A stretch of 64,000 nt of DNA, from the NCBI GenBank assembly GCA_903908065.1, contig CAIVQO010000081.1:18954-82953 (forward strand). The letters are read 5' to 3'. Origin of the DNA: an uncultured beta proteobacterium (lineage in GTDB: Bacteria > Pseudomonadota > Gammaproteobacteria > Burkholderiales > Rhodocyclaceae). Of the stretch, positions 27,758 through 36,899 are shown one piece after another. The translations under genes were made by a program, and so were the position numbers. How positions within the stretch are numbered: the first letter of the stretch is position 1; every line of letters starts with the position of its first letter. The notes below the pieces were generated by a model. That model was not told the origin of the DNA. It did no database searches and saw only the letters and a program-made list of their open reading frames with translations.

Positions 27758-29011
27758 CTATCTGTCTACGTCGCCAAGAACCAAATCGATGGTGCCGATC
27801 ACGGCGGTGGCATCGGCCAACATGTGCCCACGGCACATTTCGTCGGTCGCGGCCAGATGCGGAATTCCCGCCGTGTGCAGCTTGATGCGGTAGGGCTTGT
27901 TGGCACCGTCCGAAACGGCCCAAACTGCCATCTCGCCCTTTGGGTGCTCGATCGCTGCATACACTTCGCCTGGAGGAACGTGCATGCCCTCGGTGAACAG
28001 CTTGAAGTGATGGATCAGCTCTTCCATGCTGCCCTTCATCTTTTCGCGGCGGGGTGGCGCCACCTTGTGGTCGTCGCTGATCACGGGACCGGGATTCTTG
28101 CGCAGCCAATCGATACACTGCTTGATGATGCGATTCGATTGCGCCATTTCTTCCATGCGCACCAGGTAGCGATCATAGGTATCGCCATTCACGCCCACCG
28201 GGATATCGAAATCAAGGCGGTCATACACCTCGTAGGGCTGCTTCTTGCGCAGATCCCATTCGATGCCCGAACCACGCAACATGGCGCCGCTGAAGCCAAG
28301 TTGCAGGGCACGTTCGGGGCTGATGACGCCGATGCCGACAGTGCGCTGCTTCCAGATCCGGTTGTCGGTCAAGAGCGTGTGGTATTCCTCGAGCAGGATC
28401 GGGAAGCGATTGGTGAAATCTTCCAGGAAATCGAGCAGCGTACCGTTGCGCGCCTCGTTCAGTTCCTTCACCGTCTGCGCGTTCTTGAAGCGGTTCTCCT
28501 GATACTTCGGCATCTGGTCCGGCAGATCACGGTACACACCGCCGGGCCGATAGTAGGCCTGATGCATGCGAATGCCGCAGGTGGCTTCGAACACGTCGAA
28601 CAAGTCCTCGCGCTCGCGGAAGGTGTACAGCACCATGGTCATGGCGCCGATATCGAGTGCATGGGTGCCGATGTTCAGCAGGTGGTTCTTGATCCGCGCA
28701 ATCTCGTCGTACATGACGCGGATGTACTGGGCGCGGATCGGCACTTCGACGCCAAGCAGCCGCTCAACCGCGAGGCAATAGGCGTGCTCGCTGGGCAGCA
28801 TTGAGGTGTAATCGAGGCGATCCAGGTAAGGCAGGGTTTGCAGCCAGGTGCGGGTCTCGGCAAGCTTTTCCGTGCCGCGATGCAGAAGTCCGATATGCGG
28901 GTCGGCCCGGACGATGACTTCGCCATCGAGTTCCAGCACCAGGCGCAGTACGCCGTGTGCCGCCGGATGTTGCGGACCGAAGTTGAGGGTGTAATTCCTG
29001 ACGTCAGCCAC
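27758..29011 (-). CDS. nuoD: NADH-quinone oxidoreductase subunit D
   Basis: ORF 27758..29038. I prefer GTG 29011, which gives 417 aa with an 8-nt overlap with the nuoC stop. Motif [19 protein letters not shown]. Confidence 0.95.
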
Positions 29012-29603
29012 GACCGCCCTTTCCGTAGTTTTCCTCACGCACGATGCGCGGCGTCACTTCGCGCGGCTCGATGGTCACGGGCTGATAAATCACGCGCTGC
29101 TGCTCCGGGTCATAGCGCATTTCGACATAGCCCGAGATCGGGAAGTCCTTGCGGAAGGGATGACCGACGAATCCGTAGTCGGTCAGGATGCGCCGCAGGT
29201 CGGGGTGACCTTCGAAATGGATTCCGAACAGGTCGAAGGCTTCACGTTCGTACCAGTTGGCAACGTTCCAGATATCGACCACCGATTCAAGCACCGGGAA
29301 TTCATCGTCGGTCGCAAACGCCTTGACCTGCAAACGCCAGTTGTGGGCCAGCGACAACAACTGGCTGACCGCCGCATAGCGCAAGCCCTGATACCCGGTG
29401 AAATCCGAATAGTCGATTCCGGAAAGGTCCATCAGTTGTTCGAAGCTGAAGGCCGGGTCATCACGCAACTGGCGCATCACTTCGAGATAGCTGGCCGCCG
29501 GAACAACCACGGTAACCTCACCGTGATTGATCGACGGTTCGCCGATGCGATCACCGAAGCTTTCCTTGAGTTGCCGGCAAAGCCGTTCCAGTTTGGCGCT
29601 CAT
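29004..29603 (-). CDS. nuoC: NADH-quinone oxidoreductase subunit C
   Basis: ORF 29004..29603, in operon order. Motif [19 protein letters not shown]. Confidence 0.97.
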
Positions 29604-29613
29604 GTCGGTCGAT

Positions 29614-30090
29614 TCAACGTGCGATGGTGGAGGTGCGACGAATCTTGCCCTGCAACTGGATCAGGCCATACAGCAGGGCCTCCGCCGTCGGAGGGCAACC
29701 CGGCACATAGACATCGACCGGGACGATGCGGTCACAACCACGCACCACGGAATAGGAATAGTGGTAGTAGCCGCCACCGTTGGCGCAGGAACCCATCGAG
29801 AGCACCCAGCGCGGCTCGGCCATCTGGTCATACACCTTGCGCAGGGCCGGGGCCATCTTGTTGGTCAGGGTGCCGGCGACGATCATCACGTCGGACTGGC
29901 GCGGACTCGGACGGAACACGATGCCGAAGCGATCGAGGTCGTAGCGCGAACAACCGGCATGGATCATCTCGATGGCGCAGCACGCCAGGCCAAACGTCAT
30001 CGGCCACATCGAACCGGTACGCGTCCAGTTGATGATCTTGTCCAGCGAAGTGGTAACGAAACCTTCCTGGAGAACGCCTTCGATACTCAT
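29614..30090 (-). CDS. nuoB: NADH-quinone oxidoreductase subunit B
   Basis: ORF 29614..30201 trimmed to ATG 30090 ([14 protein letters not shown]). Motifs GLACCAIEM and GCPP. Confidence 0.95.
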
Positions 30091-30112
30091 GCGCAGATAT
30101 CCCTTGTCCCGT

Positions 30113-30487
30113 TCATTCCCAGTCCAGCGCACCCTTGGCCCACGCATACACGTAGCCGACCACCAGGATGCCGATGAACACGAACATTTCGACGAAGCCA
30201 AACATCCGCACCGAATCGGTGGCTACGATCTCCTTGAAGATCGCAGCCCACGGGAAAAGGAACGCGATTTCGAGATCGAACAGGATGAACAGGATGGCGA
30301 TCAGGTAATAACGCACATCGAACTTCATGCGCGCATCTTCGAAGGGAACAAAGCCGCATTCGAAGGCGGAGAGTTTTTCGCTGTCGGGTCGGTTGGGGGC
30401 AACAAGCCATCCGAGCAAAATCGGTACGCAGCCGAAGCCGAGGCCAACCAGGATGAAAACGAGGACGGGGAAGTAGTTATCCAGCAT
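30113..30487 (-). CDS. nuoA: NADH-quinone oxidoreductase subunit A
   Basis: ORF 30113..30487. Motifs KLSAFECGF and [16 protein letters not shown]. Confidence 0.97.
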
Positions 30488-30595
30488 TTTTGTGGCGCGG
30501 CTACATGATCACTCGTTGTTGTTACCGGCCACCCGCAATGCGCTGCAAGAAAACCGATGCCAGACTGCTTTGGTACTTCTGCCCTGCTCAAAAAC

Positions 30596-30680
30596 TGGTG
30601 CCGACGGCGAGACTCGAACTCGCACAGCTTTCGCCACTACCCCCTCAAGATAGCGTGTCTACCAATTTCACCACGTCGGC
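30596..30680 (-). tRNA. tRNA-Leu, anticodon GAG, long variable arm, encoded CCA
   Basis: The reverse complement folds by eye as GCCGACG TG GTG AAATTGGTAGA CAC G CTATC TTGAGGG GGTAG TGGCGAAAGCTGT GCGAG TTCGAGT CTCGC CGTCGGC ACCA. The anticodon loop is TTGAGGG. Confidence 0.93.
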
Positions 30681-30707
30681 TTTTTTGCTACTGCACGAGC
30701 GGCTCGC

Positions 30708-30713
30708 ATTATA
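30708..30713 (-). promoter_or_regulatory. Candidate -10 hexamer TATAAT for the tRNA-Leu promoter
   Basis: The minus strand reads cagaTATAATgcgagccgc, about 28 nt upstream of the tRNA 5' end, followed by a GC-rich discriminator. The -35 element is poor. Confidence 0.35.
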
Positions 30714-30777
30714 TCTGATGGCATCGATTGATTCATGCGCCGCAGCAAAAAAATCTATGGCCCTTGAAGCCTGAAGT

Positions 30778-31131
30778 TTATTTCGGAATGTCCTTCGCCT
30801 TCGAATCGGGAGCGGCCGGAGCTGCCGGCGGCAATGCCGGGGCAGAGCTGGGCGCCGGGACCGAATCCATCACGCTGGTTGCGCGGGTCGGACGCGAATT
30901 CGATACGTACGACAGCCCGAGGCTGGTCAGAAAAAACACTGCCGCAAGCACTGCCGTAGCACGGGACAGGAAATTCGCCGAACCGGTGGCGCCAAACAGG
31001 CTGCCCGACGCACCGCTGCCAAAGGCCGCCCCCATGTCCGCACCCTTGCCGTGCTGTAACAGCACGAGGCCGACGACGCCGACGCCGGCAAGAATATGTA
31101 CGACCAGAATGACGCTATGCAGGATTTCCAT
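30778..31131 (-). CDS. secG: Preprotein translocase subunit SecG
   Basis: ORF 30778..31131. LLQHGKGADMGAAFGSGASGSLFGATGSANFLSR is the SecG signature. Confidence 0.95.
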   Translation of the reverse strand: MEILHSVILVVHILAGVGVVGLVLLQHGKGADMGAAFGSGASGSLFGATGSANFLSRATAVLAAVFFLTSLGLSYVSNSRPTRATSVMDSVPAPSSAPALPPAAPAAPDSKAKDIPK

Positions 31132-31153
31132 GAAGTCCTCTTGAAGTAAATGC

Positions 31154-31897
31154 TCAGGCGGCAGCGTGTATGGCGAGGAAATCCTCGGCCACCAGCGAGG
31201 CGCCGCCGATCAGGCCGCCATCGATGTCGGCCTGGCCAAAAAGTTCCTTTGCATTGCCGGGTTTGACGCTGCCACCGTAAAGAATCTGCAGTCCCGCAGC
31301 AATATCGGCACTGTCTGAAGCAAAGCGTGCGCGGATCAAGGCATGAACCTCTTGCGCCTGTGCTGGCGTTGCGGTTCGACCGGTGCCGATCGCCCAGACC
31401 GGTTCGTAGGCCACCACGGCGCGCGAAAAAGACGCGACTCCGGAACCCGCCAGGACGGCATCAAGCTGGCGCGTCACGACGGCTCCGGTGATGCCGGCCT
31501 CGCGTTCCGCCAGCGTCTCGCCCACGCACAACACGGGAATCAGCCCAACCTTGAGGGCCGCCGCAAATTTTGCCGCAACCACGGCATCGGTGTCGCCATA
31601 GAACGAGCGACGCTCGGAATGTCCCACGAGCACATATCGGCAGCCGAAATCGGCAAGCATGGCACCACTGACTTCACCCGTGTAGGCCCCTTGCCCATGC
31701 TCGGAAACATCTTGCGCGCCCCAGGCTACCTTGCTGCCATCGAGCACGGCACGTGCCTGGGCCAGATAGGGATATGGCACGCAGACGGCAATTTCCGCCT
31801 GCCCTTGGGCTCCCTCACGCACGGCCTGCAGCAGGCCCAGATTGCCGGCCAGGCTGCCGTGCATTTTCCAGTTACCGGCGACAAGTTTGGTACGCAT
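31154..31897 (-). CDS. tpiA: Triosephosphate isomerase
   Basis: ORF 31154..32005 trimmed to ATG 31897 (MRTKLVAGNWKMHG). Motifs VGHSERR, AYEPVWAIGTG and GGASL. Confidence 0.95.
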   Translation of the reverse strand: MRTKLVAGNWKMHGSLAGNLGLLQAVREGAQGQAEIAVCVPYPYLAQARAVLDGSKVAWGAQDVSEHGQGAYTGEVSGAMLADFGCRYVLVGHSERRSFYGDTDAVVAAKFAAALKVGLIPVLCVGETLAEREAGITGAVVTRQLDAVLAGSGVASFSRAVVAYEPVWAIGTGRTATPAQAQEVHALIRARFASDSADIAAGLQILYGGSVKPGNAKELFGQADIDGGLIGGASLVAEDFLAIHAAA

Positions 31898-32013: not shown

Positions 32014-32027
32014 TTGATGCAGATCAA
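32014..32027 (+). promoter_or_regulatory. FNR/CRP-family binding site, perfect FNR consensus TTGAT-N4-ATCAA
   Basis: TTGATgcagATCAA read directly. A candidate -10 hexamer GATACT sits at 32049-32054, 21 nt after the box, which is class II spacing. The frdA ATG is at 32094. Confidence 0.75.
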
Positions 32028-32093: not shown

Positions 32094-33851
32094 ATGGAAA
32101 CTGTAAGCACTGATGTCGTGATCGTGGGCGCAGGAGGCGCAGGCTTGCGTGCCGCAATCGCCCTCGCGGAAACCGCTCCGACGCTGCGCATTGCCCTGAT
32201 CTCCAAGGTCTATCCCATGCGCAGCCACACCTGCGCGGCAGAAGGAGGGGCCGCCGGCGTGATCAAGCCCGACGACAGCTTCGACTTTCACTTCCACGAC
32301 ACCGTTGGCGGCGGCGATTGGCTTTCCGATCAGGATTGCGTCGAGTATTTCATCCACGAAGCCCCCAAAGAACTGCTGCAACTTGAGCACTGGGGCTGCC
32401 CCTGGAACCGGGAAGCGGATGGTTCGGTCGCCGTACGTCCCTTCGGCGGCATGAAGAAGCAGCGCACCTGGTTTGCCGCCGATAAATCCGGCTTCCACAT
32501 CCTGCACACCTTGTTCCAGACCTCATTGCAGTTTCCCTCCATTACCCGCTTCGACGAATATTTCGGGCTCGACCTGTTGATGCATGACGGCCGCTGCCGT
32601 GGCATCACCGCGATGGAAATGCGTAGCGGCGAATTGCGTCAGTTCCACGCCAAGGCGGTGATCATCGCCGGGGGTGGCGCCGGGCGGATGTTCCCTTTCT
32701 CCACCAACGGCGCGATCAAGACGGGCGATGGCATAGCCATGGCCTACCGCGCCGGTGCACCGCTCAAGGACATGGAGTTTGTCCAGTACCATCCGACCGG
32801 CCTGCCCAACACCGGCAGCCTGCTGACTGAGGCCTGTCGCGGCGAGGGCGGCATCCTCACCAACAAGCATGGCCGCCGCTACCTGCAGGATTACGGCATG
32901 GGGCCGGAAACACCGGTCGGCAAACCCCAGCTCAAGACCATGGAGCTCGGCCCGCGCGACCGGCTCAGCCAGGCCTACTGGCATGAATTGCAGAAGGGCA
33001 ACACCGTCAGCACCCAGTGGGGTGAATGTGTTTTGCTCGACATGCGCCACCTCGGCGCGAAGAAAATCCGCGAGCGCCTGCCGCTGGTACATGAACTGGC
33101 CGAAAGCTATCTCGGCGTCGACATCATCAAGGACCCGGTGCCGATCCGCCCGGTGGTGCATTACATGATGGGGGGCATTTCGACCAATACCGCCGCCGCA
33201 ACGCCACTCCCGGGCCTATTCGCCGCCGGCGAATGTGCCTGCGTCAGCCTCAACGGTGCCAACCGGCTGGGGTCCAACTCGCTCGTCGAATTGCTGGTGT
33301 TCGGCCGCCGCGCCGCACTTTCGGCCATCGACTACCTGCAGACTGTCCCGGCCTTGGATGCTTCGTCACTGAACGCGGCGGCCGACACCACGCGTCAGCG
33401 CATCGAGGCGCTCTACAACCGGAACGATGGCGTCGAATCGATGTCCGGACTGCGTCGCGAAATGATGGACACGATGGAGAAGAACGTGGGCATCTATCGC
33501 AACGAAGCCGGCTTGCAGGAAGGAGTGAACAAGATTCACGAACTGCGTGCGCGCTACACCCGGGTCAAACTTACCGATCGCAGCCGCGTGTTCAACACCG
33601 ACCTGTTCCAGATCCTCGAACTTGGGTCAATGCTTGACTGTGCCGAGGCGGTTACGGTGGGTGCGCTGGCTCGGCGCGAATCGCGCGGCGCCCACCAGCG
33701 CCTGGATTATGTGGACCGTGATGACACGAATTTCCTGCGCCACACCATGGTTCATCGCCAGGGTGCCGACCTGCCGCGTGTCGACTACCTAGATGTTGTC
33801 ATCACACGTTCGCCGCCGGGCGTGCGCGACTATTCGGGAGACCACAAATGA
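32094..33851 (+). CDS. frdA: Fumarate reductase flavoprotein subunit
   Basis: ORF 31842..33851 trimmed to ATG 32094 (METVSTDVVIVGAGGAGLRAAIA). Motifs RSHTCAAEGG, YHPTG and HGANRLGSNSL. Followed by frdBCD. Confidence 0.93.
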   Translation: METVSTDVVIVGAGGAGLRAAIALAETAPTLRIALISKVYPMRSHTCAAEGGAAGVIKPDDSFDFHFHDTVGGGDWLSDQDCVEYFIHEAPKELLQLEHWGCPWNREADGSVAVRPFGGMKKQRTWFAADKSGFHILHTLFQTSLQFPSITRFDEYFGLDLLMHDGRCRGITAMEMRSGELRQFHAKAVIIAGGGAGRMFPFSTNGAIKTGDGIAMAYRAGAPLKDMEFVQYHPTGLPNTGSLLTEACRGEGGILTNKHGRRYLQDYGMGPETPVGKPQLKTMELGPRDRLSQAYWHELQKGNTVSTQWGECVLLDMRHLGAKKIRERLPLVHELAESYLGVDIIKDPVPIRPVVHYMMGGISTNTAAATPLPGLFAAGECACVSLNGANRLGSNSLVELLVFGRRAALSAIDYLQTVPALDASSLNAAADTTRQRIEALYNRNDGVESMSGLRREMMDTMEKNVGIYRNEAGLQEGVNKIHELRARYTRVKLTDRSRVFNTDLFQILELGSMLDCAEAVTVGALARRESRGAHQRLDYVDRDDTNFLRHTMVHRQGADLPRVDYLDVVITRSPPGVRDYSGDHK

Positions 33852-34591
33852 AGGAACGACTGGTCCAGCTCGATGTCCTGCGCTACAACCCGGACACTGA
33901 CACCGAGGCGCACTTCCAGCGTTATGAAGTCATGTGCCAGGAGGAATGGGTGGTGCTCGATGCGCTGAACAAGGTCAAGGAAAGCATCGACCCGACGCTG
34001 AACTACCGCTGGTCCTGCCACATGGCGGTCTGCGGCAGTTGCGGCATGATGATCAACGGCGAACCGAAGCTGTCCTGCCACACGTTCCTGCGCGACTACC
34101 CCGGGGTGATCCGCGTCGAACCGCTGACCCACTTCCCGGTCGAGCGCGACCTCGTCACCGCGCCCGACGACTTCATGGAAAAGCTGAAGCGCGTCAAACC
34201 CTACGTCATTGCCAAGCAGAAAAAGCCGATCGAGGAAGGCGAATACAAACAGACGCCGGCGCAGCTGATGAAGTTTCGCCAGTACTCGATGTGCATCAAC
34301 TGCATGCTGTGCTATGCCGCCTGCCCGGAATACGGACTGACACCCCATTTCGTTGGCCCCGCCGCCCTGACACTGGCCCACCGCTACAACCTGGATTCGC
34401 GCGACGAGGGGCGCAAGGAACGCATGGAAGTGGTGGCAACCAAGGAAGGTGTTTGGGAGTGCACCTTCGTCGGCGCCTGCTCCGAAGTCTGCCCGGCCCA
34501 GGTCGACCCGGCCAGTGCCCTGCAGCAACTTAAGATCGTCGGCTCGATCGACTGGATCGTCGAGCATCTGTTGCCCGGAGGTAAGCCATGA
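33848..34591 (+). CDS. frdB: Fumarate reductase iron-sulfur subunit
   Basis: ORF 33848..34591. Motifs WSCHMAVCGSCGMMING, CINCMLCYAACP and CTFVGACSEVCP. ATGA overlap with frdA. Confidence 0.95.
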   Translation: MKERLVQLDVLRYNPDTDTEAHFQRYEVMCQEEWVVLDALNKVKESIDPTLNYRWSCHMAVCGSCGMMINGEPKLSCHTFLRDYPGVIRVEPLTHFPVERDLVTAPDDFMEKLKRVKPYVIAKQKKPIEEGEYKQTPAQLMKFRQYSMCINCMLCYAACPEYGLTPHFVGPAALTLAHRYNLDSRDEGRKERMEVVATKEGVWECTFVGACSEVCPAQVDPASALQQLKIVGSIDWIVEHLLPGGKP

Positions 34592-34980
34592 GCCGCCGCC
34601 CACTGATCCGCGAGGTTCCGCCCGCGAGCTGGTTTTTCCGCCATCCGCGCTACTTGCGCTACATGGCGCGCGAGGTGACCAGTGTTTTCGTCGGTGCCTA
34701 TTGCGTACTTTTGGTAATCGCTATGCAGCGCCTTGCGGCCGGACCGATCGCCTGGCAGGAGTTTCTTGTGGCGTTGCGCAGCCCCGTCTCGATCATCTTT
34801 CACCTGCTGGCCATGGCGGCGGCTTTCTATCATGCCGGCACCTGGTTCAATGCCACGCAGAAAGCCATGCCGCTCCAGATCGGCGAGAACTTCGTCCCGG
34901 GTTCCTACATATCGGGCGCCCACTATCTGGTCTGGGCCGTGCTATCGCTGGTGGTGCTGTTTTTCGCGGGAGTGTTCTGA
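34588..34980 (+). CDS. frdC: Fumarate reductase membrane anchor subunit C
   Basis: ORF 34588..34980, 130 aa. Aligns by eye with E. coli FrdC (FYRFYMLREGT vs RYLRYMAREVT; HTKTWF vs HAGTWF). Confidence 0.9.
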   Translation: MSRRPLIREVPPASWFFRHPRYLRYMAREVTSVFVGAYCVLLVIAMQRLAAGPIAWQEFLVALRSPVSIIFHLLAMAAAFYHAGTWFNATQKAMPLQIGENFVPGSYISGAHYLVWAVLSLVVLFFAGVF

Positions 34981-34982
34981 CC

Positions 34983-35324
34983 ATGGCCAAGTCCCATAAG
35001 CCGGTCGTCTGGTTTCCCTTTGCCGCCGGCGGCACCGTTATTGCGTTCTGCATGCCCGTGATCGTCGTCCTCGGCTTTCTGGCCGCGCTCGGTCACGTGC
35101 CATCCGGACTGAGCTATGAGTCACTGCATGCCTTCGCTGCCCACGGGCTAGGCAGGCTGGTGCTGCTGGGCGTCATCGCCTTGTCGCTATGGAGCTCGGC
35201 CCACCGCTTGCGCTGTACCTGCTACGATTTCGGCCTGCGCGCGGACACGCTGATTGCCACGATGCTGTATGTCGCGGCGATCGTCGGCAGCGCAGCGACG
35301 GCGATGTTCCTTTTCCGGATCTAG
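34983..35324 (+). CDS. frdD: Fumarate reductase membrane anchor subunit D
   Basis: Tail of ORF 34449..35324 from ATG 34983 (MAKSHKPVVWFPFAAGGTVIAF...LSYESLHAFA). Same pattern as E. coli FrdD (PVFWGLFGAGG...LSYERVLAFA). Confidence 0.88.
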   Translation: MAKSHKPVVWFPFAAGGTVIAFCMPVIVVLGFLAALGHVPSGLSYESLHAFAAHGLGRLVLLGVIALSLWSSAHRLRCTCYDFGLRADTLIATMLYVAAIVGSAATAMFLFRI

Positions 35325-35356: not shown

Positions 35357-36112
35357 ATGGCACCACCCCCACCGGCCTCGCGCGAAGCCGTCCGCGAAGC
35401 GCGCCTTGGCGATGTCTGGAGCAACGAGCTGAATGACGTTTTCGCCGATGTCGCACCGTATTACGACCGCGCCAATAACATTGCCGCGCTCGGGCAGTTC
35501 GGCAATTTCCTGCGCCGGTTCATGCAACTCGTCGAATTGCGACCGCACCAGAAGGTGCTCGACGTCTGCGCCGGCACCAACGCGGTTGGCATTGCCCTGC
35601 TGAAGCGCGAACCGACCCTGGAAATCCATGCCATCGATCGCAGCGCGGCTATGCAGACCGTGGGACAGCAACGCGCAGCGGAACTGGGATTCCAGATCAA
35701 GAGCAATATCGGCGACGTGCATGCCCTACCCTTTCCCGACAATCACTTTGACGTGGTGACCCTGCAGTTCGCCTCGCGTCATCTGCGGGTGCGCGAGGTG
35801 TTCGCGGAAATCCGCCGGGTATTGAAACCCGGCGGCCGCTTCCATCATTCGGACATGTTGCGGCCGCGCAATCCGATCGTGAAGCGTCTGTATTACAGCT
35901 ATCTGCGCGGCTGCCTCGGCATCACCGGCCTGATCGTCGGCAGCGGACCCGCGGCCGTCCAGGCCAAGCAATACTTCATGGACGCGCTGGAGCTTTTCTA
36001 TACGGCCGAGGATTTGTCGATCCTGCTACGTGAGCTTGGCTTTGTCGATGTTCGCGTCGACACCGTGTTCCACGGCATGATCGGATTCCACCGCGCTACC
36101 AAGGCGGGCTGA
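35357..36112 (+). CDS. UbiE/MenG-like class I SAM-dependent methyltransferase-fold protein with atypical motif I; RquA (rhodoquinone) candidate
   Basis: ORF 35189..36112 trimmed to ATG 35357 (MAPPPPASREAV). YYDRANNIAALG resembles the UbiE N-terminus. Motif I reads VLDVCAGTNAVG rather than GxGxG. Also LPFPDNHFDVVTLQFASRHL and VLKPGGRF. It lies 32 nt after frdD. Confidence 0.85.
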   Translation: MAPPPPASREAVREARLGDVWSNELNDVFADVAPYYDRANNIAALGQFGNFLRRFMQLVELRPHQKVLDVCAGTNAVGIALLKREPTLEIHAIDRSAAMQTVGQQRAAELGFQIKSNIGDVHALPFPDNHFDVVTLQFASRHLRVREVFAEIRRVLKPGGRFHHSDMLRPRNPIVKRLYYSYLRGCLGITGLIVGSGPAAVQAKQYFMDALELFYTAEDLSILLRELGFVDVRVDTVFHGMIGFHRATKAG

Positions 36113-36129: not shown

Positions 36130-36813
36130 GTGCTTCCGGAGGCGCACAGACTCGCACGACTCGACGGCCGGGTGCAGCGGCTGTACAGCCGGCGCACCCT
36201 CGCCGCGCTGCGGGCCGCACTGCCGATGCGCCTCGCGCTGCCCCACCTGGAGCCCGTGCTGGTGCTCAATGTCGCCAAGGAAGTCGAGAAGGACACGGCG
36301 GTAATCCTCGATGCCGGAAACCCGATGCGCGCCGGCATCGAGCAGGAACAGCGCCTTTCCGATCTGTTGCAGGCAACGCGGGACATCGACCGTCGCTTCC
36401 TCGACCAGGTGGGCCGTTTTCCGGTGGAAATCGTCGTCCGCTACGACGAGATCATCCCGTTTCGCACCCGCCGCATACGTCTCATGCATGAGGCCGCGCA
36501 AAAAATCCTTGGCGGCGGGAGCAATGCCGCCAGCCTGCGCGACGCATTGCGTGCCGCATATTCGCGGGAAGAGTTCGCCCGCCTGCAGCACGAACTGTTT
36601 CACCTGTACGCCGAGGAAGTTCGCTCCTTGAGCCGTTCAGTGCGCCTGCCCAGGGCGCTTGTGCCGCTGCGCGAAATGATCGCCCGCGAGTTGCTTGACG
36701 TCATGCTGCGCGTCGCTTGGCCCCTGGCGCAGGACATCGCTGCGCTGGCCCATCGCCCCGCCGCGCGGGGGGCCACGGTGGCGAACCAAGCGGGCGCTGC
36801 AAGCGCCGATTGA
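36130..36813 (+). CDS. Hypothetical protein (227 aa), no family recognised
   Basis: ORF 36130..36813 (GTG start; ATG 36226 is the alternative). Third codon positions look GC-rich by eye and composition is normal. The competing minus-strand ORF 35998..36603 overlaps the methyltransferase 3' end and looks like a shadow. Confidence 0.55.
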   Translation: MLPEAHRLARLDGRVQRLYSRRTLAALRAALPMRLALPHLEPVLVLNVAKEVEKDTAVILDAGNPMRAGIEQEQRLSDLLQATRDIDRRFLDQVGRFPVEIVVRYDEIIPFRTRRIRLMHEAAQKILGGGSNAASLRDALRAAYSREEFARLQHELFHLYAEEVRSLSRSVRLPRALVPLREMIARELLDVMLRVAWPLAQDIAALAHRPAARGATVANQAGAASAD

Positions 36814-36899
36814 CGGCGGCGCCACTCCACCGACATACTTGCAACAGGGCAGTTGAAGCCTCAAGCTTCGCCCTGCTCCACTTGATCCGGGAGAGACGC

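Follow-up and report, generated by a model that had tools for sequence, protein, structure and literature searches.

On sequence criteria, the gene that follows the fumarate reductase operon frdABCD in the stretch of DNA analysed here (64,000 nucleotides, hereafter the window) is not rquA. The identity with RquA put forward as a candidate in the initial annotation is refuted by the curated RquA model, by motif I, by the catalytic residues and by the phylogenetic tree. The gene, designated here ubiE2, encodes a representative of a separate clade within the UbiE/Coq5 family, and its location beside frd in relatives having neither RquA nor menaquinone hints at an anaerobic quinone route that is as yet undescribed.

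The interest of such a route stems from the requirements of the enzyme encoded next to it. Fumarate reductases of the E. coli type depend on a quinol whose potential is below that of ubiquinol, and to our knowledge RquA, with rhodoquinone as its product, is the sole solution found in Proteobacteria relying on ubiquinone only; RquA converts ubiquinone to rhodoquinone using SAM as amino donor and Mn2+. FrdABCD devoid of both RquA and the menaquinone pathway, with ubiE2 in the place of RquA, is encountered in Sulfuritalea, Sulfurisoma and Georgfuchsia, and the same gene content is found in many metagenome-assembled genomes from groundwater, lakes and wastewater and in a second family of the order. 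New in the present analysis are the counts showing how the clade complements RquA and MenD, the finding that its gene takes the positions of rquA, the comparison that sets it apart from RquA residue by residue, and the partner gene ORF227.

The frd locus and its putative expression signals

The open reading frame occupying positions 35357-36112 of the plus strand was confirmed as a stop-free sequence coding for a UbiE-family protein of 251 aa, and its ATG (35357) is separated by 32 nt from the stop codon of frdD (35322-35324) on the same strand, exactly as initially annotated; the gap contains a Shine-Dalgarno-like GGGAA stretch. Pfam matches also bear out the assignment of the genes located 5′ of ubiE2, all on the plus strand, to frdABCD: frdA for the flavoprotein (32094-33851, ATG at 32094; PF00890, 362 bits, and PF02910, 149 bits), frdB for the iron-sulfur subunit (33848-34591; PF13085 and Fer4 families), frdC for a membrane anchor of the E. 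coli type (34588-34980; PF02300, 116.9 bits) and frdD for the other membrane anchor (34983-35324; PF02313, 84.5 bits), whose ATG at 34983 lies 2 nt past the frdC stop. On the other side, ubiE2 is followed in the same orientation by ORF227 (36130-36813, plus strand), which encodes a conserved helical protein travelling with ubiE2. Homologues of ubiE2 amount to 4294 in the database at E≤0.001 and to 537 in species-representative genomes, and the order frdABCD-ubiE2-ORF227 recurs in about 40 Sulfuritalea-like loci, the loci viewed being those of the best 80 of the 537 relatives, nearly all of them Sulfuritalea-like. Those relatives that bear names put the source organism within Sulfuritalea or beside it (Rhodocyclales). 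This multiplicity of relatives together with conserved synteny qualifies ubiE2 as a real gene rather than a chance reading frame, the products of which carry in NCBI merely the label “class I SAM-dependent methyltransferase”.

An FNR-type box TTGATgcagATCAA, listed without strand, is situated at 32014-32027, 67 nt ahead of the start of frdA, and represents the sole perfect match in the window, where 0.05 would be expected by chance. FNR-like boxes were also revealed about 96 nt 5′ of ubiE2 in four genomes in which this gene heads the frd operon, while the second ubiE2 paralogue of the genome under study has no upstream FNR box at one mismatch or fewer. No terminator-like site was detected at the junctions between frdD, ubiE2 and ORF227. 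Transcription of ubiE2 probably proceeds from an FNR-dependent promoter that it shares with frdABCD and ORF227, in which case UbiE2 would be produced under anoxia. A sigma-70-like promoter match is found at 36810-36839, directly 3′ of ORF227; beyond it sits a trio of genes for an amidohydrolase, a lipoprotein and a di-haem peroxidase, and this location of the match suggests that the trio forms a separate transcription unit. On the other side of the frd operon, and oriented away from it, lies tpiA-secG-nuo (complex I) at positions 27758-31897 of the minus strand.

Affinity of UbiE2 to UbiE/Coq5 and its separation from RquA

A search with the RquA model NF038261 (cut-off 175 bits) over this genome, which is 99.6% complete, did not list the ubiE2 gene at E≤0.01, and the top score, only 44.4 bits, belongs to the canonical UbiE. 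True RquA proteins, which 47 of the 151 family genomes encode, reach 268-309 bits with this model, the whole range for sister genomes being 268-315 bits. In phmmer comparisons UbiE2 scores 21 bits against true RquA and 86 bits against the UbiE of its own genome. Motif I of UbiE2, VLDVCAGTNAVG, has been read correctly in the initial annotation, though its deviance from the canonical form is retained only in part: the substitution of Gly by Asn at position 9 is indeed specific to the clade, but Cys at position 5 of the motif and Ala or Thr at position 6 are common in ordinary UbiE/MenG representatives. The hallmark of RquA in this motif, which PMC7813818 gives with reference to Lonjers 2012 and Stairs 2018, consists of the replacements of Asp by Gln at position 3 and of Gly by Val at position 7. 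RquA proteins of the family studied here follow it, reading VLQ[IVA]ACVYG with Gln and Val in 12/12, whereas UbiE2 has D69 and G73, that is Asp and Gly, at these positions.

The maximum-likelihood tree, built from 61 sequences including 12 rows of RquA and 26 of UbiE2, resolves RquA and UbiE2 as separate clades (SH-aLRT 99 each) divided by a long branch. Thus the phylogeny that was to place the protein with either RquA or UbiE leaves it outside RquA, yet also apart from the canonical UbiE of the genome, which groups with generic UbiE/MenG representatives. In agreement with the absence of RquA, Sulfuritalea hydrogenivorans was scored UbiE=3 and RquA=0 by Chobert et al. (PMC11707229, Table S1). 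What UbiE2 does share with RquA is the status of a class I SAM-fold relative of UbiE, the positions beside frdABCD in related genomes and the occurrence in ubiquinone-only Betaproteobacteria without menaquinone.

Membership of UbiE2 in the UbiE/COQ5 family follows from its match to PF01209, which attains 114.8 bits (gathering score 20.1) and extends over residues 22-249, corresponding to profile positions 6-233 of 233. At the same time the protein falls short of every curated UbiE/MenG/MpqE cut-off of NCBIfam, scoring 128.7 bits with TIGR01934 (cut-off 158.35), 88.8 bits with NF001240 (cut-off 378) and 110.6 bits with the MpqE model NF052510 (cut-off 335), while the canonical UbiE of the same genome, to which it is about 29% identical, obtains 431.7 bits against the cut-off of 378. 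A set of 1.84 billion representative proteins contains no more than 36 that match UbiE2 at E≤1e-30, and the boundary of the family is marked by a sharp fall in score, from about 190 bits down to about 115. Sequence-profile search with the UbiE2 clade brought yeast Coq5 (4obw) as the best PDB match (67.8 bits), and the structure search with the AF2 model (pLDDT 86.2) also gave 4obw chains as the best ones (E 9e-18, TM 0.76-0.81, rmsd 2.7-3.1 Å), with the aromatic C-methyltransferases NovO and CouO ranking next.

The residues compared were assigned their roles according to PMC6056717 and PMC9814641, the first of which proposes Tyr78 and Arg201 of Coq5 as catalytic. Their counterparts in UbiE2 are Y36 and R141. 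Tyr is kept in 26/26 UbiE2 and 21/21 UbiE-like sequences and is not conserved in RquA; Arg is likewise kept in 26/26 and 21/21, and its place in RquA is taken by His (12/12). The SAM-binding Asp residues D69, D94 and D120 are all retained in UbiE2 and in UbiE-like proteins (D120 in 16/21), while RquA keeps D94 and D120 and has Gln instead of D69. The UbiE-specific N-terminal lid motif YD..N....G is invariant in UbiE2, as are four residues specific to the clade: N75 (Gly in most UbiE), Q137, H142 (Asn in UbiE) and H164. With the catalytic and SAM-binding residues kept and clade-specific ones added, UbiE2 gives, as far as can be read from its sequence, the impression of a functional C-methyltransferase whose substrate pocket has been remodelled. 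It therefore resembles UbiE, MenG and Coq5 in fold, lid motif, acidic SAM-binding residues, proposed catalytic Tyr and Arg and length of about 250 aa, and differs from them in its scores below the cut-offs, in forming its own clade with the invariant N75, Q137, H142 and H164 and in being an extra copy placed by anaerobic respiratory operons instead of with ubiJ/ubiB. A precedent for the role proposed below is provided by MpqE, the methyl-plastoquinone methyltransferase of Nitrospirota, which is also a UbiE-family enzyme recruited for a non-canonical benzoquinone; UbiE2, far under the cut-off of NF052510, is no member of this group and differs from it in taxa and gene context. The literature search yielded no study characterising the UbiE2 clade and no quinone analysis or enzyme assay for any of its members, and nothing specific was retrieved on frd-linked UbiE paralogues, on the quinones of Sulfuritalea and Georgfuchsia or on Accumulibacter.

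Distribution of UbiE2 and its genomic contexts

The co-occurrence of UbiE2 with fumarate reductase was assessed in 39 genomes, comprising the 28 FrdC-positive ones out of 151 of the family and 11 FrdC genomes outside the family taken from the order sample. RquA only is encoded by 21 of them (15 in the family and 6 in the order sample), UbiE2 only by 13 (9 and 4), both by 2 (2 and 0), MenD with neither of the two by 2 (2 and 0), and none of the three by 1 (0 and 1). The distribution of UbiE2 is thus complementary to that of RquA: 13 of the 16 Frd genomes without RquA possess UbiE2, 2 have MenD and 1 has none, although related genomes are not independent, and fewer evolutionary events underlie these figures than their size suggests. 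Two genomes with RquA and UbiE2 together mean that the pair is not strictly alternative, and in one genome frd is flanked by rquA and a UbiE2 homologue. The sole exception is a complete FrdC-positive genome of the same order, in which the queries used detected no RquA, UbiE2 or MenD. One genome (G020) carries UbiE2 plus MenD, and FrdC is missing from 6 of the 17 UbiE2 genomes in the family sample; both observations weigh against the reading preferred below.

Where ubiE2 and frd coexist they are mostly neighbours (12/15 genomes, the remaining three having both genes non-adjacent), and in the order sample ubiE2 is next to frd in 4/4 UbiE2 genomes. Three arrangements are encountered, namely frdABCD-ubiE2, ubiE2(-orf227)-frdABCD and divergent, the second of them, ubiE2(-ORF227)-frdABCD, in four other genera. 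The true rquA of sister genera occupies the same positions beside frdABCD as ubiE2 does, the vicinity of rquA and frdABCD as such being already known in general (PMC5953543).

In the genome under study neither RquA nor MqnA was found, and no MenD above the cut-off; UbiA, UbiG, candidate UbiU/V and a separate SdhCD are present. A divergent MenA-like prenyltransferase is encoded in this genome without a menaquinone pathway, on contig C34 (L018, 1008-1967), scoring 125.8 bits against the cut-off of 264. It was considered as a partner of UbiE2 in a salvage of DHNA to menaquinone and rejected: the gene occurs in 65/151 family genomes without tracking UbiE2, and was not found in G008, G018, G020 and G029.

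Besides one canonical UbiE, this genome encodes two UbiE2-type proteins. The second, of 257 aa and about 73% identical to the first, is encoded on the minus strand of contig C60 (L003, 1486-2259), where it is flanked by the 3′ end of a spoT/relA-like gene and by a NUDIX gene. In related genomes the paralogue of this type is followed by genes for a cytochrome c and a fusion of multihaem and cytochrome b parts of about 670 aa; the fusion resembles an inner-membrane quinol dehydrogenase. A complete genome of the same genus has a UbiE2 copy after a molybdopterin oxidoreductase operon (L163, 14032-18957), the order there being molybdopterin oxidoreductase, 4Fe-4S subunit, NarJ/TorD-type chaperone, UbiE2, cytochrome c and multihaem proteins. 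Sulfurisoma sediminicola has ubiE2, together with the accompanying reading frame, inserted between secG and nuoA, so that the tpiA-secG-nuoA junction seems to be a recurrent site for the module. These further contexts of UbiE2 are likewise anaerobic and quinone-dependent; those of four distant clade members are uninformative.

Possible role of UbiE2 in anaerobic quinone supply

Comparative genomics suggests that the task of ubiE2 is to furnish the neighbouring, FNR-controlled FrdABCD with a quinone that it can use. The initial annotation assumed the supply of rhodoquinone, and one half of this assumption is upheld: the site of rquA and the Frd genomes devoid of RquA and MenD speak for the provision of a quinone. 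Rhodoquinone itself is an unlikely product because, as the alignment indicates, the catalytic residues of a methyltransferase are retained. The reading we favour, with middling confidence, is that UbiE2, an enzyme with the UbiE/Coq5 fold, methylates carbon in a SAM-dependent reaction and thereby tailors a quinone for an anaerobic respiratory chain. Its substrate would be a prenylated quinol, most plausibly one of the ubiquinone-pathway intermediates, and its product a quinone presumably usable, in terms of redox potential, by FrdABCD of the E. coli type and, in other genomes, by multihaem quinol dehydrogenases and complex I; thereby it would fill the role played in related bacteria by RquA with rhodoquinone or by menaquinone. 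The main gap of the proposal lies in the chemistry: by general chemical reasoning, simply methylating a benzoquinol at carbon should not lower its potential down to that of rhodoquinone or menaquinone, and so what would enable Frd to work is left unexplained. It also counts against the proposal that Frd of Georgfuchsia may act as succinate dehydrogenase (PMC9290046).

A bolder version of the same idea, which we put forward tentatively and consider rather doubtful, is that UbiE2, perhaps with ORF227, constitutes a third quinone route independent of RquA and menaquinone, used by ubiquinone-type Betaproteobacteria for fumarate reduction and for other anaerobic quinol-dependent enzymes, its product being a novel isoprenoid quinone, which would be a benzoquinone with another methylation pattern or else a derivative of low potential obtained by new SAM chemistry. 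If UbiE2 does make a distinct quinone, the short list of respiratory quinones grows by one, predictions of anaerobic metabolism from genomes would change for abundant environmental Betaproteobacteria, in which current pipelines count a redundant UbiE, and UbiE2 would join RquA as a second UbiE-type enzyme put to use in fitting the ubiquinone pathway to anoxia.

Among the competing explanations, the one deserving most attention, although improbable in our estimation, regards UbiE2 as an anaerobic isozyme of UbiE converting DDMQH2 to DMQH2 in the O2-independent UbiT/U/V pathway, with no new quinone formed. E. coli manages both pathways with a single UbiE, which makes a dedicated isozyme less expected. 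Identity of the catalytic residues with those of UbiE/Coq5, linkage of ubiE2 expression to FNR through the predicted boxes and candidate UbiU/V in the genome are all compatible with this explanation, and Chobert et al. (PMC11707229) count UbiE2 as UbiE. Against it are the low identity to the UbiE of the same genome (29%), a pocket that differs (His for the N202 equivalent, Q137, H164) and scores under every curated UbiE/MenG cut-off; moreover, it leaves the complementarity with RquA and MenD and the adjacency to frd unaccounted for. Even a mere isozyme would make a useful correction of annotation, the gene being not RquA.

It is still less probable that UbiE2 performs a non-methyl SAM reaction evolved independently of RquA, yielding rhodoquinone or another low-potential quinone with an amino or other substituent. 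A low-potential product is just what FrdABCD needs, and the occupation of RquA's genomic niche, largely to the exclusion of RquA, the clade-specific Gly-to-Asn replacement in the SAM loop and the invariant pair His142 and His164, as potential metal ligands, fit such chemistry. It has no experimental hint, however, and UbiE2, unlike RquA, keeps the full catalytic kit of UbiE/Coq5. Equally slight is the chance that the substrate of UbiE2 is a non-quinone small molecule or a protein and that its association with frd and with further respiratory genes reflects common anaerobic control only. Several clade members in uninformative contexts and the UbiE2 genomes of the family without FrdC (6/17) would be easier to understand in that case, but the invariance of the UbiE-specific lid motif and of the catalytic Arg, Coq5, NovO and CouO as the nearest structures and the linkage to quinone-dependent enzymes recurring across differing arrangements argue for a quinone substrate. 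Finally, that ubiE2 is rquA or its divergent form, making rhodoquinone by the known amino-transfer reaction, is hardly credible: its presence at the site of rquA in sister genera, the shared superfamily with the class I SAM fold and the lack of any other known low-potential-quinone route in this genome are outweighed by the missing NF038261 match, the phmmer scores, Asp/Gly in place of Gln/Val, the retained Tyr and Arg, the separate clade and the zero score for RquA in S. hydrogenivorans.

A candidate partner of UbiE2, which may contribute to the quinone tailoring of the favoured reading, is encoded by ORF227. The product of 227 aa is all-helical and is modelled by AF2 as a seven-helix bundle (pLDDT 88.9). 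The Pfam search returned no match, Foldseek comparison of the model with PDB gave nothing at E≤0.001, and the wide VIA-align search found its best Z of 6.1 among helical bundles, inside the noise range stated for the tool. Homologues of ORF227 were detected in UbiE2 carriers only, in 10/151 family genomes. Nine of the ten lie directly 3′ of ubiE2, and the remaining one, in a complete genome of the same genus, comes directly after frdD with no ubiE2 between them.
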